Of a stretch of DNA of 33,288 nucleotides, positions 3-7,317 are shown piece after piece. The stretch covers positions 5,022-38,309 of the forward strand of contig CAZWYZ010000002.1 in the NCBI GenBank assembly GCA_964638785.1, given 5' to 3'. A program made the translations under genes and the position numbers. Each line of letters begins with the position of its first letter. Position 1 is the first letter of the stretch. This DNA is from an uncultured Pseudomonadales bacterium (lineage in GTDB: Bacteria; Patescibacteriota; Microgenomatia; UBA1400; UBA12028). The notes beneath the pieces are model-generated. The model did not search any database and had not been told where the DNA came from. It was given only the letters and a program-made list of their open reading frames with translations.

Positions 3-260
3 GTGTCATTCCGCGAGTTTTCGGTTTTCTTTCATGATGAGTTAAAGACGTTTTGGTCTGAAGTTACTTCAATTCCTCTCACTCAGTTCAATAAATCATA
101 CAGAAAAACAAACACTGGTAAGACGAAAAAAGCAGGTTATCAGGGCTGTGCCAGCATTTATTACTATGATGCAAAAATTGCGAAAGAGCTAACAGCCCTA
201 TATAATGCACTTTACCCCTGGGCATTGAAAGTCAATCTCCGTCCAGGACCAAATACATAG
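3..260 (+). CDS. C-terminal fragment of a LAGLIDADG-type homing-endonuclease-like protein (5' end outside the window)
   Basis: The ORF runs in from the window edge. The segment FWSEVTSIPLTQFNKSYRKT...GCASIYYYDAKIAKEL resembles LAGLIDADG_3-type repeats as I recall them; no search was done. The stop TAG at 258-260 overlaps the first 2 nt of the tRNA. Confidence 0.35.
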   Translation: MSFREFSVFFHDELKTFWSEVTSIPLTQFNKSYRKTNTGKTKKAGYQGCASIYYYDAKIAKELTALYNALYPWALKVNLRPGPNT

Positions 261-329
261 GGCTATGATGAAATGGTATCATTCCGGTCTCCAAAACCGT
301 ATTTCCAGGTTCGAATCCTGGTAGCCCTG
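259..329 (+). tRNA. trnW: tRNA-Trp (anticodon CCA)
   Basis: Manual cloverleaf. Acceptor AGGGCTA (259-265) pairs with TAGCCCT (322-328). D stem ATGA/TCAT. Anticodon stem CGGT/ACCG with loop CTCCAAA (anticodon 291-293). T arm CCAGG-TTCGAAT-CCTGG (305-321). Discriminator G329. CCA is not encoded. Confidence 0.85.
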
Positions 330-346
330 CAAACAGGCTCGAACCT
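307..346 (+). repeat. Junction J0: array-proximal att-like site made of the tRNA T-loop/acceptor 3' half plus the right box
   Basis: AGGTTCGA (307-314) is the exact reverse complement of TCGAACCT (339-346). An inner CCTG (317-320) pairs with CAGG (334-337). The layout matches the cassette junction repeats. Confidence 0.6.
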
Positions 347-420
347 AAATAATAGATTGCAATATCAATCTAATAGTGGTCGATTTTTGTCTCTATTCCT
401 TCCGTCCTTCTTTTGTTTGA

Positions 421-426
421 TATACT
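421..426 (+). promoter_or_regulatory. -10 hexamer TATACT, 6 nt upstream of ATG 433 (leaderless layout)
   Basis: tTGaTATACT followed by cttgtc and ATG; no SD. Confidence 0.5.
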
Positions 427-432
427 CTTGTC

Positions 433-876
433 ATGGCAAAGGAACAAATGGAAGACAAGTATCAAAGCGGAACATTAAAGGAATATAAACACTGGGTTCT
501 GACTGTTAGCTTCAGACAGACTACGTTAGGAAGTTACATTATCCTAGCCAAGCGACCGATGGAACGCATTACAGAACTATCTGATGATGAGCTTCTAGAA
601 TTACGGCTAGCCATGTCAGAAATGGAAAGAGTTCTACTACAAGCTGATGGTTTCAAGCCTGATCGGTTTAACTATCTTCAACTGGGAAACTCGCTTCATC
701 AACTTCATTTTCATGGTGTTCCAAGATATGCATCGCCTAGATTTTATGCTGAAAAGGAATGGATAGATCACCGATACGGAACAACCCCTCTTATTGTCTC
801 GAAGAGCGAAGAGTCTGAAGAGAGTCTTGTACGTCAAATACGAGATGCATTGAAGCCATTATTTGAAAGTATATAG
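433..876 (+). CDS. HIT (histidine triad) family hydrolase, cassette 1
   Basis: Contains the histidine-triad-like motif LHQLHFHGVPRY and has a HIT-sized fold length (147 aa). The stop TAG is the first 3 nt of TAGGTTC in J1. Confidence 0.7.
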   Translation: MAKEQMEDKYQSGTLKEYKHWVLTVSFRQTTLGSYIILAKRPMERITELSDDELLELRLAMSEMERVLLQADGFKPDRFNYLQLGNSLHQLHFHGVPRYASPRFYAEKEWIDHRYGTTPLIVSKSEESEESLVRQIRDALKPLFESI

Positions 877-919
877 GTTCTGACATCCTCCATGAGTCCC
901 TGCAAATAGGCTCGAACCT
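875..919 (+). repeat. Junction J1 (left box plus right box, short type)
   Basis: Sequence AGGTTCTGACATCCTCCATGAGTCCCTGCAAATAGGCTCGAACCT. Its 3' two thirds are nearly identical to the tRNA 3' end and flank (CCCTGCAAACAGGCTCGAACCT). Confidence 0.8.
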
Positions 920-992
920 TAATAATAGGTGAGCAAATCAATCCAAAATTAGTGATTTTTTACTCCATTCCTTCCGTCCTTGATTAGTTTGA

Positions 993-998
993 TATACT
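993..998 (+). promoter_or_regulatory. -10 hexamer TATACT, 7 nt upstream of ATG 1006
   Basis: tTGaTATACT followed by ttgaact and ATG; no SD. Confidence 0.5.
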
Positions 999-1005
999 TT
1001 GAACT

Positions 1006-1465: not shown

Positions 1466-2203
1466 ATGGAAAAGGAAAAACTTTCCCCAGTAGAACAAAC
1501 GGCAATTCGTGCATCTGAAATCTTCAAAAAACTTCCTTTGGCATACAAGAGACTGATAATGTTTGCAGACTGGCTTATGGTGCTGGATGGAATGAAAGCA
1601 GCGACTGATTACGCATTCTTGGGTAACACTTGGGATGAGAATGAGTTCCAAATCTTCAAGCAAACGCTAGAGTCAGCAGGGATTAAAGTGTCGGATGTTC
1701 ACACGCGATATTTCAAAGATAATATTCCGTTTAGGAGTGGACACATCTATAACCCGCGAGCATTGGCAGCTCAGACTGCTCACTCTGAGATGATCCCTCC
1801 ATTCGATGTATCATCAACTTTTGATGAATATGAGCATATGCTAAAAGAAAGTGGAGTGCCCGACGGGATAATATACGGGAAACTCTATTCATTTCCCGAG
1901 TCTGCTATCAAAGATTATCTGAAAGGTAGTGGACATGAACTCACGGATACTAATAGAGTTGGTCTAGGGCAGGGCAATGAAAGTTACTGGGCATACTCAC
2001 CTTTACAGGATGATGTCATTGAGAGAGAGAAGGCTAGTGAGATTTTTCTTTCTAAAATTGAGCAGAATCCATTAATGAAACGAATTTATGAAAGTGAGGA
2101 GCTGAAAGCTTCTGACAAAGAATGGAGCCGAAGACTATCTAAGCTTACAAAACAAACTCTAATTCAGCGACTCGGAACAAAGCTTCGTTCACTAAGAAGA
2201 TAG
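1466..2203 (+). CDS. hypothetical protein (245 aa), cassette 3
   Basis: Long ORF with the promoter-ATG layout; no family recognised. The stop TAG lies in J3. Confidence 0.6.
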   Translation: MEKEKLSPVEQTAIRASEIFKKLPLAYKRLIMFADWLMVLDGMKAATDYAFLGNTWDENEFQIFKQTLESAGIKVSDVHTRYFKDNIPFRSGHIYNPRALAAQTAHSEMIPPFDVSSTFDEYEHMLKESGVPDGIIYGKLYSFPESAIKDYLKGSGHELTDTNRVGLGQGNESYWAYSPLQDDVIEREKASEIFLSKIEQNPLMKRIYESEELKASDKEWSRRLSKLTKQTLIQRLGTKLRSLRR

Positions 2204-2284
2204 GTTCGAACATCCTCCACGAGTCCCTGCAAATGGATTTTCCTCGAGTGAAAAAATAGGGGCACAAGGAAGGCTCGAACCTAA
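2202..2284 (+). repeat. Junction J3 (83-nt type with central CTCGAG)
   Basis: Perfect left box AGGTTCGAACATCCTCCACGAGTCCCTGCAAAT and right box GGCTCGAACCTAA. It differs from J4 at about 5 of 83 positions by eye. Confidence 0.85.
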
Positions 2285-2298: not shown

Positions 2299-2817
2299 AT
2301 GCTTACCCCTGCTCATATTGCTTCTTCATATCTCCTAAGTCAGGTTCCTTGTTTGTTCGGTCAACCTCTCAGTTCTTACGATGTCACCACTGTGATTTTA
2401 GCAGGGAACGTGCTTGATTTGGATTTCCTACTTGGATACTTGCGAAATAAAAAAGGTGACGATCACCATAATTTCGTCACACATACACCGTTATTTGTTT
2501 TTGTTGTTTGGACTATTTGTTTGCTACTCTTTCCACACATATTCAGTTCACTTTTATGGATGTTGATATTTGTTTCTGCAATGATACATCTGGGTCTAGA
2601 TGATATTGGATACTGGTTTTGCAGGTTCGAGTGGCAAAAGATTAGCAAGTATCCTCAAATAAACTGGCTATATCCTTTCGCTCCGTTTCAATCTAGAAAA
2701 TATCACGGGACAAATCGGTCATTGCTCAAAGACTATTTCCAAAAGGCAAGAGTGAATGTGTTTCTGGAGGTGACTTTGATATTTTCAGCAATTGTAGTAT
2801 TTTTGACTATTAGGTAG
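2299..2817 (+). CDS. membrane-bound metal-dependent hydrolase (YdjM/DUF457-like), cassette 4
   Basis: Several hydrophobic segments. His/Asp motifs occur in the YdjM order: N-terminal H, DLD, HHNFVTHT, HLGLDD. The stop TAG lies in J4. Confidence 0.5.
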   Translation: MLTPAHIASSYLLSQVPCLFGQPLSSYDVTTVILAGNVLDLDFLLGYLRNKKGDDHHNFVTHTPLFVFVVWTICLLLFPHIFSSLLWMLIFVSAMIHLGLDDIGYWFCRFEWQKISKYPQINWLYPFAPFQSRKYHGTNRSLLKDYFQKARVNVFLEVTLIFSAIVVFLTIR

Positions 2818-2898
2818 GTTCGAACATCCTCCACGAGTCCCTGCAAATGGATTTACCTCGAGTAGAAAAATAGGGACTCAAGGAAGGCTCGAACCTAA
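2816..2898 (+). repeat. Junction J4 (83-nt type)
   Basis: Perfect left and right boxes. The internal arms GAGTCCCT and AGGGACTC are complementary, and the centre is CCTCGAG. Confidence 0.85.
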
Positions 2899-2926: not shown

Positions 2927-3595
2927 ATGATTAGAAGTGAAAAGTGGCTCCCCGCAACAATTGCTCGCTTCACTGAGAATTATTTATTTAGTGGAAGTTA
3001 CCAGTGTACATTCGATGAAACAAAAGAGAATCAAATGATTCTGATCCCAGGGATGGGCGCATCAGTGTCTCAACTCTTCCGACTTGTTGATTCTTTACGA
3101 GCAGATGCTGATTTCCAATCCTACGGAATTACAGCCGTACAGCTGGGTTTGAGTCTGGGTGCTTTTAAAGATACCTTATCAAATCTCGAATCCAAACTGG
3201 AATCAAAGGTTTTTTCAAATACAGCAATAAAGCAGGTTGTTCTTTATGGGCATAGTCATGGTGGGCGTTTTGCTTGCCAACTCGCAACAGATTTGCAGAC
3301 AAATCATCCAGGCATAAGTTTGAAAGTTATCACTGGTGGAACTCCAGTAGTAGAAAGGCCTTCATCCTTTAAAAATTGGCTACTTTCACTTTCCTTTAGA
3401 GAATGGCCATCTATCGAGCAACCTCAGATAAACGAATATTATTCACTCTATTCCAACTCTGATGAAATTGTTGATGAAGATGATGCCAGAAGAGGATCAA
3501 AAGCAACTTTAGTAGAACTACAAGACTTTTCTCATAGTGATTTTATAAACCCAGAGAAAATAATGCCTGTATTAAAAGATCTTTGCATCAAATAG
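2927..3595 (+). CDS. alpha/beta-hydrolase fold esterase/lipase-like protein, cassette 5
   Basis: Contains a nucleophile elbow GHSHGG (GxSxG) in a 222-aa protein. The stop TAG lies in J5. Confidence 0.6.
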   Translation: MIRSEKWLPATIARFTENYLFSGSYQCTFDETKENQMILIPGMGASVSQLFRLVDSLRADADFQSYGITAVQLGLSLGAFKDTLSNLESKLESKVFSNTAIKQVVLYGHSHGGRFACQLATDLQTNHPGISLKVITGGTPVVERPSSFKNWLLSLSFREWPSIEQPQINEYYSLYSNSDEIVDEDDARRGSKATLVELQDFSHSDFINPEKIMPVLKDLCIK

Positions 3596-3652
3596 GTTCG
3601 AACATCCTCCACGAGTCCCCGCAAATTTTAATAGATTGGTATATCAATCTAA
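3594..3652 (+). repeat. Junction J5 (left box plus AGATTG-N6-CAATCT mini-hairpin; no right box)
   Basis: Left box AGGTTCGAACATCCTCCACGAGTCCCCGCAAAT is followed by AATAGATTGGTATATCAATCTAA. The same hairpin follows the tRNA at 354-371. Confidence 0.8.
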
Positions 3653-3718: not shown

Positions 3719-4237
3719 ATGCCAAAAGAAATCTACATATTACGTCACGCTGAGAAAGACGATCTAGGAACATTAACTGATAAAGGGAGACAACAAGCCA
3801 CTGAGCTTCGAGACAGACTTCCACAGTTTTCAAACGTAATTTCTTCTGAATCCAAAAGAGCCCAGGAAACTGCAACTCTTGTGACTGGCAAAGAACCAAA
3901 AGTAGATCCAAGAGCAGGGTTTTATATGGCTCACCCTGAAAAGAGTGATGAGTTAAACAGGATAGCTAAAGAAAAAGGAATACCATTTCTAGAAGCGGTT
4001 GTATTGCTAAACGATTCAGAAGTTCTAGCTGGTATAGATGATAAAGCAGGTCAGTTAAATGACTTGGTAAAAGAATTACTTGAAACTTTACCAGATGGAG
4101 CAAAAGCTATTATTATTTCTCATGACTTAAGTATCAGCCCAGCGATGCAGAAAAGGGGAGTTCCTCTTGAATCAATCCCATTCTTAAGCGGATACATCAT
4201 TGATGAAGAGGGGAAGATCTCCACTTTCACCCCATAG
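3719..4237 (+). CDS. histidine phosphatase (phosphoglycerate-mutase-like) family protein, cassette 6
   Basis: N-terminal IYILRHAEK (RHG-type motif) and a later ISHD histidine. It has its own TAG, 27 nt upstream of J6. Confidence 0.7.
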   Translation: MPKEIYILRHAEKDDLGTLTDKGRQQATELRDRLPQFSNVISSESKRAQETATLVTGKEPKVDPRAGFYMAHPEKSDELNRIAKEKGIPFLEAVVLLNDSEVLAGIDDKAGQLNDLVKELLETLPDGAKAIIISHDLSISPAMQKRGVPLESIPFLSGYIIDEEGKISTFTP

Positions 4238-4264
4238 TAAGAGAAGTATTTTTCATTGTTAAAT

Positions 4265-4372
4265 AGGTTCGAACATCCTCCACGAGTCCCTGCTTCACAG
4301 TTTTTGACTTTTCTTCCCTCAAGCAAAAGAGGTTCGAGCCTTGGATAGACACAAGGAATTTGTTCGAACCTA
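4265..4372 (+). repeat. Junction J6 (108-nt composite type, sister of J2)
   Basis: The left box is near consensus (AGGTTCGAACATCCTCCACGAGTCCCTGC, then TTCAC in place of AAAT). It is followed by the 43-nt block AGGTTCGAGCCTTGGATAGACACAAGGAATTTGTTCGAACCTA, identical to J2. Confidence 0.85.
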
Positions 4373-6387: not shown

Positions 6388-7317
6388 ATGGATAAAGACA
6401 TGCAAGGTGTGGAATTTCCTTCAGAAGCACATCGAAATCTCTCCGATCATTTAGATGAAATAGAAGTTCATGAAGAGAATCTTCAAGAAGTACAAGAATT
6501 GACTGATCTTTTTTTTGACCAGTTAATTGAAGTTAGTTACACTGAGTCAAACACAAGAAGTGGGACGATTGCCTGGGATCAAGATAAATTGGATATGGTT
6601 GAGTATCTAGCGAATATAGCTGGTGAAGTTTGGGAAATAGGTGGGCCAACTGAAGAATATACCATGATTGATCAGGCTCGAATTAAGAACACGTTTAGAG
6701 TAGTGAATATTCCACCAGCACCTGGACTCAATACATATAGAGAAATTCCAACACAGGTTTCTGTCCTTGCTGATGGTTCTCAATTGCCCATTGGCGATAA
6801 GATTTTAGCAGGTCTACTAATAAGTAATTTCAGCGGAGAGAGAAATGCACTAATACAAGAGGTGTCTAGAGTCTTAAAAACAGATGGCCTCCTTGTTTGG
6901 CAAGGTGGGAAGCCAGAGGATTTAGCCATGATGTTGACGAAGGGATTTGTCCTACAGTCTTTCAAGCTGACTATAGTCGATCAAAGTGAAAAGCCAGACT
7001 CAAAAAAAACAGGTCAACAGTTGGTATGGTCTGGAGTTTTTAAAAAGACAGACAAAGAAATTTCCAGTTCAGACGTTGTCCCACTGTTCGTAAACATTAT
7101 AAAGAATTCAAAAAAGGAAGAAATCGCTTTCGAAATTCCTAACTTTGATCCCAGTACGGGACGATCTCTAACAACTGATGCTGAAAGGGTAGAGGTAATT
7201 AAAAATTTGTATTGGACCATTGGGGTGAAAGTCCCTGATGAAGATGCAGATGGTAAGTTGCTTACTCCAGAAGAAAAGATGAAGTATTTAAAGGAAAAGT
7301 ATTCCACATCTACATAA
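6388..7317 (+). CDS. hypothetical protein with a possible class I methyltransferase-like core, cassette 10
   Basis: VWEIGGP ... LPIGDKILAGLLISN ... LIQEVSRVLKTDGLLVWQGG resembles SAM-MTase motifs I, II and post-III; the match is weak. Confidence 0.4.
   Translation: MDKDMQGVEFPSEAHRNLSDHLDEIEVHEENLQEVQELTDLFFDQLIEVSYTESNTRSGTIAWDQDKLDMVEYLANIAGEVWEIGGPTEEYTMIDQARIKNTFRVVNIPPAPGLNTYREIPTQVSVLADGSQLPIGDKILAGLLISNFSGERNALIQEVSRVLKTDGLLVWQGGKPEDLAMMLTKGFVLQSFKLTIVDQSEKPDSKKTGQQLVWSGVFKKTDKEISSSDVVPLFVNIIKNSKKEEIAFEIPNFDPSTGRSLTTDAERVEVIKNLYWTIGVKVPDEDADGKLLTPEEKMKYLKEKYSTST

Follow-up and report, generated by a model that had tools for sequence, protein, structure and literature searches.

We show that the 3′ end of a tRNA-Trp gene and the sequence directly behind it form a 40-bp dyad-symmetric site (positions 307–346), that a cassette array follows it whose units are joined at the motif CCCTGC, and that arrays of this kind lie behind tRNA-Trp in several families of the Microgenomates. 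We suggest that 307–346 is an attachment site, acting as double-stranded DNA, at which cassettes dock through a serine integrase supplied in trans; as a whole we judge this reading to fall just short of probable, and the class of the enzyme would follow from the spacing of sequence motifs. In the proposed mechanism the T loop and acceptor 3′ strand of the tRNA would provide the left half-site, CC at 326–327 the centre and 328–346 the right half. Each cassette has three parts, namely a promoter-bearing leader, a single ORF and a left box of 30 nt, and cassettes are joined at the core; the left box imitates the 3′ half of the tRNA, except that its T-loop hexamer is set 5 bp further out. Both the right box and the mini-hairpin behind the tRNA simultaneously belong to the first cassette's leader module, which is 103 nt long.

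The window, i.e. the whole stretch of 33,288 nucleotides that was analysed, corresponds to contig C2:5022–38309 of an assembly of 0.96 Mb (126 contigs, 43% G+C, completeness ~90%), the relatives of which are named Woesebacteria, Pacebacteria and Patescibacteria, placing them in the Microgenomates (Candidate Phyla Radiation). Its tRNA-Trp gene (Table 1) is intact and is the only tRNA-Trp gene of the assembly; CCA is not encoded, and the trailer reads CAAA. The array behind it holds about a dozen single-gene units, up to ~9.3–10 kb, with products that include HIT, YdjM-like, lipase-like, histidine phosphatase, GNAT, CYTH and methyltransferase proteins. Repeats that begin at the stop codon (TAGGTTCGAACATCCTCCACGAGTCCCTGC, the left box) lie between one unit and the next, and the left box of junction J1 provides the TAG stop of the HIT ORF. 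Within this genome the left-box family is confined to this array; no recombinase domain was found in the 13 array ORFs, and in Rfam the tRNA is the sole match in the array, with nothing further in the array of genome G243 either. On the upstream side, tRNA-Trp has a conserved neighbour in four genomes, an opposite-strand protein of 436–478 aa with a weak match to DUF6938. A LAGLIDADG reading of the ORF abutting the tRNA (L001 4575–5281; window 3–260) was rejected, as it has no Pfam support and two N runs interrupt the ORF.

Table 1. Features of the tRNA-Trp attachment region and of the cassette junctions, in window coordinates
Feature	Position	Strand	Evidence
tRNA-Trp(CCA)	259–329	+	ARAGORN; Rfam RF00005, 60.8 bits
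Left (B-type) half-site: T-loop box AGGTTCGAA (307–315) and TCCTGGTAGC	307–325	+	Geometry table; sequence
Common core CCCTGC	325–330	+	Insertions, homology ends, conservation limit, dyad centre
Type-1 leader module of the first (HIT) cassette	325–427	+	nhmmer E 1.5e-27; alignment of module copies
Right (B′-type) half-site: TGCAAACAGG and right box CTCGAACCT (338–346)	328–346	+	Geometry; conserved block
Mini-hairpin AGATTG-N6-CAATCT, leader-module element	354–371	+	Sequence, DNA fold, module alignment
First cassette ORF, HIT family	433–876	+	Pfam PF01230; ORF list
J1: P-type left box (874–903), then type-1 module	874–999	+	Junction comparison, nhmmer, geometry
J3: TTCGAA at 16–21 left, CTCGAG (2243–2248) at 16–21 right	2201–2282	+	Geometry; DNA fold
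J4: architecture as J3; CC 2840–2841, CTCGAG 2857–2862	2815–2896	+	Duplex z −8.05; DNA fold; geometry
J5: left box without right box, then second mini-hairpin (3633–3650)	3593–3650	+	Sequence, DNA fold, geometry
J6: composite junction, ends pair (TAGGTTCGAACA/TGTTCGAACCTA)	4264–4371	+	DNA fold; duplex z −5.8

The inverted repeat seen at the 3′ end of tRNA-Trp is real and specific. An earlier sequence-only reading of this DNA had placed AGGTTCGA at 307–314 and its exact reverse complement TCGAACCT at 339–346, with CCTG (317–320) and CAGG (334–337) pairing inside these arms, had located AGATTG-N6-CAATCT behind them and again in J5, and had noted the same end pair in J3 and J4; all of this holds in the sequence, the end pair lying at 2202–2209/2275–2282 in J3 and at 2816–2823/2889–2896 in J4, and we find it in J6 too (4265–4272/4364–4371). 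AGGTTCGA occurs 16 times in the window, with 0.84 occurrences expected. The duplex energy between the last 31 nt of tRNA-Trp and the next 110 nt lies at z −4.2 to −5.2; the corresponding values are −1.3 or weaker for the remaining 31 testable tRNAs of the genome (32 in all), and between −2.4 and +0.9 across 21 related tRNA-Trp genes. Among 13 array-bearing tRNA-Trp loci, the one in this window is the only one with significant complementarity between 3′ end and flank. Since AGGTTCGAACCT is a 12-bp palindrome in its own right, the right box AGGCTCGAACCT (335–346) can equally be read as a direct or as an inverted repeat of the T arm AGGTTCGAATCCT (307–319), and MAFFT lines the right box up with the beginnings of the cassette left boxes.

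The sequence-only reading had taken the T arm, acceptor 3′ strand and flank for an attC-like hairpin, folded on single-stranded DNA and acting as a recombination substrate equivalent to attI. Both strands of 305–348 do fold stably as single-stranded DNA with their ends paired (+ strand, −11.5 kcal/mol, z −5.6; − strand, −9.9 kcal/mol, z −3.9), stable hairpins with paired ends are also predicted for J3, J4 and J6 (J1 folds weakly, and J5 is without a right arm), the spacing of the arms is variable (24 to 91 nt) in a manner reminiscent of attC, and the flank is missing from relatives without arrays. When 81 junctions were scored for pairing of their first 30 nt with the following 120 nt (DNA parameters, dinucleotide shuffles), however, complementarity between left box and flank reached z < −3 in only four, three of them in this window (J4, −8.05; J6, −5.8; J3, −3.3; and one in G012), the median being +0.44. 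Moreover, the six module copies contain no compensatory changes in the proposed stems, every arm change being one-sided and pair-breaking (GGTTCTGA in J1 and G001, CTCAAACC in G002, AGTCTCG in G001), and the hairpin is present at a single one of the 13 array-bearing tRNA-Trp loci, the right box being absent at those of other lineages. The left box lacks an R″/L″ consensus, the point of insertion lies inside the proposed stem-loop rather than at its right end, and no integron integrase was detected, only Xer-like tyrosine recombinases that score below the IntI cut-off. In the G243 array no repeat inverted to the left box was found, despite terminator-like hairpins. Across 107 distinct junctions conservation stops abruptly at CCCTGCA(A), the right side carrying no information. 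The site is defined by sequence and not by structure, a conserved fold being absent; the single-strand foldability of 305–348 is best taken as a by-product of its dyad symmetry, and attC-like folding as the basis of recombination is, in our estimation, improbable.

We also considered that the flank might act at the RNA level, as a terminator, as a 3′ processing signal or as a trailer that regulates folding of the tRNA. The predicted minimum-energy RNA fold of tRNA plus trailer does pair the trailer with the T arm; over 259–350 this fold reaches −24.3 kcal/mol and is not a cloverleaf, the tRNA alone reaching −21.9. Such an alternative fold would compete with the cloverleaf instead of helping it, no T run stands behind the hairpin, and the module is also found after cassette left boxes far from tRNAs. 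According to the sequence-only reading, the same flank behind tRNA-Trp in relatives without cassettes would mark it as a terminator or processing signal; since the TCGAACCT/AGGCTCGAACCT flank is carried behind tRNA-Trp by none of the 21 relatives compared, it is not a general signal of this kind, and a function in RNA appears to us highly improbable.

Comparisons between genomes show where units enter. CCCTGC is common to the tRNA end and every cassette left box, and the left boxes can be aligned to the tRNA over its T loop and acceptor 3′ strand, sharing CCCTGCAAA with it. In G002 and G005 a GIY-YIG cassette lies between the tRNA end ...CCCTGC and AAAYAGGCTCRAACC, two sequences that are contiguous in this window; the inserted unit is closed by a left box in G002 and, in G005, by a 17-nt near-copy of the tRNA tail. 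In at least five lineages the module type found after the tRNA CCCTGC is the same as that found after the left boxes of that lineage: type-1 in this window, AAAAAGAGCTATGTATGGCTCTTTTT in G180 and L067, AGYGATATAGTTTGATAT in L069 and G172, CTACTTAAATCTGACTTTCGG in L072 and AGTAATATATTTTGATAT in G274. All-against-all BLAST of the arrays identified ~8 cassette families common to different genomes, and in these the homology ends at CCCTGC +0 to +10, having covered the leader, the ORF and the left box (for example, the histidine-phosphatase cassette at window 3724–4303, 70% identical to its counterpart in G005). Leaders move with the downstream ORF, and between congeners the cassette content turns over completely. 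Considering the limits of homology together with the G002 and G005 insertions, we conclude that the unit is leader plus ORF plus left box, with its joint at CCCTGC, which is the insertion point; exchange at or beyond 339–348, as proposed in the sequence-only reading, does not agree with these data, as CCCTGC, where the insertions lie and the homology stops, is to the left of the right box. Symmetry alone would put the exact crossover dinucleotide at CC 326–327. Logan contigs from the source samples, which are wastewater, contain one alternative continuation after CCCTGCAA (2232), so that within the community more than one sequence adjoins the left box on its right; excision or circle joints were not found in the public data of the source samples, which are short Logan contigs (~5x) breaking at repeats.

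The product of the tRNA-adjacent cassette in G002 (L019 1618–1869, minus strand) and G005 (L013 ~1180–1475) is a small GIY-YIG nuclease (Pfam E 7e-18). At the start of contig C2, an HNH endonuclease ORF (L001 37–528) begins inside or directly after tRNA-Thr and represents another nuclease gene adjoining a tRNA.

To the right of the core, the sequence behind the tRNA belongs to a leader module of 103 nt (type-1), a second copy of which was detected with an nhmmer profile at 898–999; elsewhere there is one copy each in G002 and G005, two and a compact one in G001, and an inverted one in G180. The order within the module is core, right box, mini-hairpin, tRNA-Trp tail remnant and extended −10. 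The remnant (ATTCCTTCCGTCCTT, 395–409) is of the type of the G002/G005 tRNA-Trp 3′ end, pointing to an origin of the module behind the other tRNA-Trp allele, and the extended −10 (TGATATACT, 418–426) lies six nt ahead of the ATG at 433. Two tRNA-Trp alleles occur within one genus, G000 and G001 having a T stem CCAGG/CCTGG and an acceptor ending ...GTAGCCCTGC, and G002 a T stem GAAGG/CCTTC and an acceptor ending ...CCGCCCCTGC. The right-half block of the site is kept in the six leader-module copies, with one substitution in each of three, and no block of the module other than the promoter is conserved as well as the right box. Right box and mini-hairpin had been regarded as fixed parts of the tRNA site, a view we cannot maintain as both belong to a module that also follows cassette left boxes. 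The conservation claimed for the mini-hairpin applies to its 3′ arm (TCAATCYAAAA), which is kept across families, and not to its 5′ arm, which is often missing.

The geometry of the site bears on the type of recombination. The dyad centre of 307–346 falls within CCCTGC, at CC 326–327; counted outward from there, TTCGAA occupies positions 11–16 of the left half and CTCGAA, its mirror, positions 11–16 of the right half. In the left boxes TTCGAA lies at 16–21 from the centre, 5 bp further out than in the tRNA, because 14 nt and not 9 separate the hexamer from CCCTGC. J3, which has a distal right box at 2272–2282, shows a symmetric, attP-like arrangement, the right part of J4 is an imperfect reverse complement of the entire left box, and J1, with its T-loop hexamer mutated to TTCTGA and CTCGAA at 11–16 on the right, has an attR-like hybrid geometry of 16–21 and 11–16. 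The same +5 shift is found in an independent family, in G243, where ten boxes read GTTCGAG-N11-CGGGGGAGC and tRNA-Asn reads GTTCGAA-N6-CGGGGGAGC. Over 107 junctions, YTCGAR on the right begins at position 16 or 17 in six and at 11 or 12 in two, the background being 0.18 per position, and this enrichment favours the scheme. In serine integrases the zinc-ribbon motif lies at 11–19 in attB half-sites and at 16–24 in attP half-sites (PMC3783163). Both the 5-bp shift between attB and attP and the dyad symmetry about a central dinucleotide are present here, and under this spacing rule the tRNA site would have the geometry of attB, J3 and J4 that of attP, and J1 that of attR, which points most readily to a serine integrase that acts in trans and recombines double-stranded DNA conservatively. 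Each entire junction of J3 and J4 is in addition an imperfect palindrome of ~80 nt centred on CTCGAG, and TTTTT(A/C)CTCGAG is seen at the same offset after left boxes of G001, G012, G180, G243 and L055, as well as in Logan contigs from the source sample.

Some properties of the arrays do not fit this scheme. Canonical serine integrases need two half-sites, and recognisable pairs of half-sites are not found in every functional site here: across the 107 junctions there is no conserved right half-site, the right hexamer being present at the expected offsets in 8 (<10%). Nor do canonical serine integrases take attL or attR as substrates, which leaves repeated insertion at one tRNA, and attP-like sites within the array, unexplained. 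The right box, moreover, occurs in leader modules away from tRNAs, and could be a relic or a regulatory element.

In an alternative reading the tRNA end and CCCTGC are the dock, and the right box and mini-hairpin are mere parts of the first cassette's leader with no role in recombination, being either a relic of the start of a left box or a regulatory, promoter-proximal element; exchange may then be homologous recombination after DNA uptake, with no dedicated recombinase. In agreement, the module follows left boxes as well as tRNA-like remnants and is inverted in G180, the right box is missing in most arrays, no recombinase gene is linked to any array, and J1 of G000 and of G002 are 86% identical over left box and module with different flanking ORFs on both sides. 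Such an origin does not, however, account for mirror spacing that is exact both at the tRNA (11–16) and at J3 and J4 (16–21), for the enrichment of the hexamer at precisely those offsets, for a right box that is conserved better than any module block apart from the promoter, or for a 30-nt left box conserved across families far beyond the needs of homologous exchange. We regard this alternative as rather unlikely.

Returning to the serine integrase, we searched for a gene that might encode it. Large serine recombinases are present in 7 of 10 array genomes, at other tRNAs; of the 19 such genes, at least 13 lie antisense to a tRNA gene and reach into its 3′ end (Lys, Asn, Ser, Pro, Met, Val, Glu or His). 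No such gene adjoins any tRNA-Trp array, and none was found in this assembly (~90% complete), in G274 or in G172. In the metagenome contig L080, the 3′ coding end of a large serine recombinase gene lies antisense over an L(Trp) box, and this gene is 46% identical to the tRNA-Asn-linked one of G243. Among the loci L096–L114 (G243, G002, G012, G141, G005 and G180), the last codons of the recombinase are the antisense of the tRNA T arm and acceptor in at least 13 of 19 cases, at eight tRNA species, and the C-termini include ...WDSNP.. and ...LLPR. As for tyrosine recombinases, this genome has a single one, an Xer-like protein on contig C8 that scores 100 bits with TIGR02249 (cut-off 265); an integron integrase (IntI) was found neither in this genome nor beside the arrays of nine others, and Xer-like enzymes are the sole recombinase type present in all 10 array genomes examined. 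A left-box-like motif 1.7 kb from the Xer-like gene in G180 and G172 lacks CCCTGC and is separated from it by two genes, which we ascribe to synteny. Two further candidates were discarded, reverse transcriptase (for RNA-mediated cassette formation) being absent from 8 of the 10 array genomes and the IS200/IS605 Y1 transposase from 5 of the 10.

With up to one mismatch allowed, the left box is found in 39 of 286 genomes of the order (the reversed control pattern gave one match) and also in 19 genome contigs and 34 metagenome contigs. Arrays directly behind tRNA-Trp were identified in seven genomes of three families (G000, G002 and G005 of this family; G243, G180 and G141 of a second; G274 of a third) and in nine further metagenome contigs, and none of the left-box arrays found is headed by any other tRNA. 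The proposal of the sequence-only reading that the tRNA-Trp 3′ end is the array-proximal docking site is borne out in that the tRNA, wherever one is present, is always tRNA-Trp; given this distribution we take the tRNA-Trp 3′ end as the docking point of the system. The tRNA-Trp-anchored cassette array is widespread in the Microgenomates (Patescibacteria). Both pattern matches in viral contigs lie within coding regions and were discounted as chance.

Several other arrangements were seen in these genomes. In G001, two convergent arrays lie away from any tRNA (C1:98–112 kb, L023), and one of their cassettes, as is also seen in chromosomal integrons, pairs a YafQ-like toxin with a ribbon-helix-helix partner. 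An ORF-less unit of ~190 nt occurs within tRNA-Trp arrays of G243 (L027) and also at L053/L090 and L071/L086; it comprises a terminator hairpin, a GC-rich core whose 5′ and 3′ ends pair, and a stretch that nearly copies the final 21 nt of tRNA-Trp. In G243 it lies at L027 5184–5375 and again at 6916, 8648, 10208 and ~11797, as part of a 1732-bp tandemly repeated segment, and has no Rfam match. A second array type in G243 (C1:388–416 kb, L115–L124) has ten boxes TAGTTCGAGTAACRACCTGTCGGGGGAGC that mimic the tRNA-Asn 3′ end, and these L(Asn) boxes are followed by leader-module types as in the Trp arrays. A tRNA-Asn anchor was sought at the head of this array, and none lies within 8 kb; covariation of the right box (ACTCGAAC in Asn arrays) with left-box type was likewise set aside, as it is inseparable from lineage differences.

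Finally, considering what such a system might do, we suggest that it is possible, although on balance doubtful, that in the ultra-small Patescibacteria integron-like gene capture has been built on a serine-integrase chassis, with the T-loop box as a universal handle, the last bases of the tRNA (Trp; Asn in G243) as an address and the 5-bp shift as a spacing code, 307–346 then being a complete, regenerated attB. Such a site may accept the next promoter-bearing one-gene cassette with the help of a recombinase encoded elsewhere, and the spacing code may distinguish the chromosomal docking half-site from that of a cassette. If so, there would be a handle on how accessory genes are acquired and shuffled in genomes of ~1 Mb with almost no classical mobile elements, and a simple spacing rule would predict which sequences recombine. 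Three defined candidate substrates are at hand, namely the 40-bp attB (307–346), the attP of ~50 bp (J3, J4) and the hybrid (J1). It would also be the first cassette-array system to rely on mimicry of a tRNA and, probably, on a recombinase of the serine and not the tyrosine type, and short sequence-defined sites with programmable tRNA-tail addresses would be of interest to genome engineers.

In the literature searched we found no description of a tRNA-Trp cassette-array system, and it is apparently undescribed; its features are nevertheless shared, in part, with four known kinds of system. Large serine integrases (e.g. those of LI/A118, Bxb1 and phiC31, and SCCmec Ccr) use attB sites of ~40 bp and attP sites of ~50 bp, and cut the strands with a stagger at the central dinucleotide before their subunits rotate. 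The likeness lies in dyad-symmetric double-stranded sites around a central dinucleotide, in an outer motif that is 5 bp nearer the centre in the host-type site (11–16) than in the element-type site (16–21), and in the tRNA 3′ ends that such recombinases target in the array genomes. The arrays differ in that no integrase gene is found in the element or, so far, in this genome, that the units are single genes of 0.4–1 kb stacked a dozen deep, that most junctions are without a recognisable right half-site, and that insertion at one site is repeated, whereas canonical serine integrases are strictly directional.

With integrons, in particular sedentary chromosomal integrons and CALINs, the system shares cassettes of one gene each, all pointing the same way behind a fixed site, recombination sites that overlap the stop codon and are homogeneous within a genome, toxin–antitoxin cassettes (in G001) and a cassette content that turns over completely between congeners. 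Every integron cassette, however, ends in an imperfect palindrome that folds (R″-L″...L′-R′), with the crossover at the right-hand core R′ (G/TT) and an attC that moves with the upstream ORF; here the site is sequence-defined, with no conserved hairpin, exchange takes place where the conserved block ends, each cassette carries its own promoter, and the array docks at a tRNA gene with no IntI.

Accretion at tRNA genes (CIMEs, tycheposon islands and Islander-type islands) is similar in that each successive insertion is flanked by direct repeats of the tRNA 3′ end, as the units here are, the tRNA remaining intact; the G005 GIY-YIG unit and the 190-nt unit of G243 even end in a near-exact copy of the tRNA tail. 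The common repeat, in contrast, is a re-spaced mimic that is unable to restore the tRNA, one repeat is conserved across families, and the units are single genes with no mobility functions and no integrase in the element. Lastly, like the Xer-dependent pdif modules of Acinetobacter plasmids, the arrays consist of small gene modules bounded by short recombinase sites, with the enzyme presumably encoded elsewhere, but their sites are in direct orientation, are not dif-like and are derived from a tRNA.
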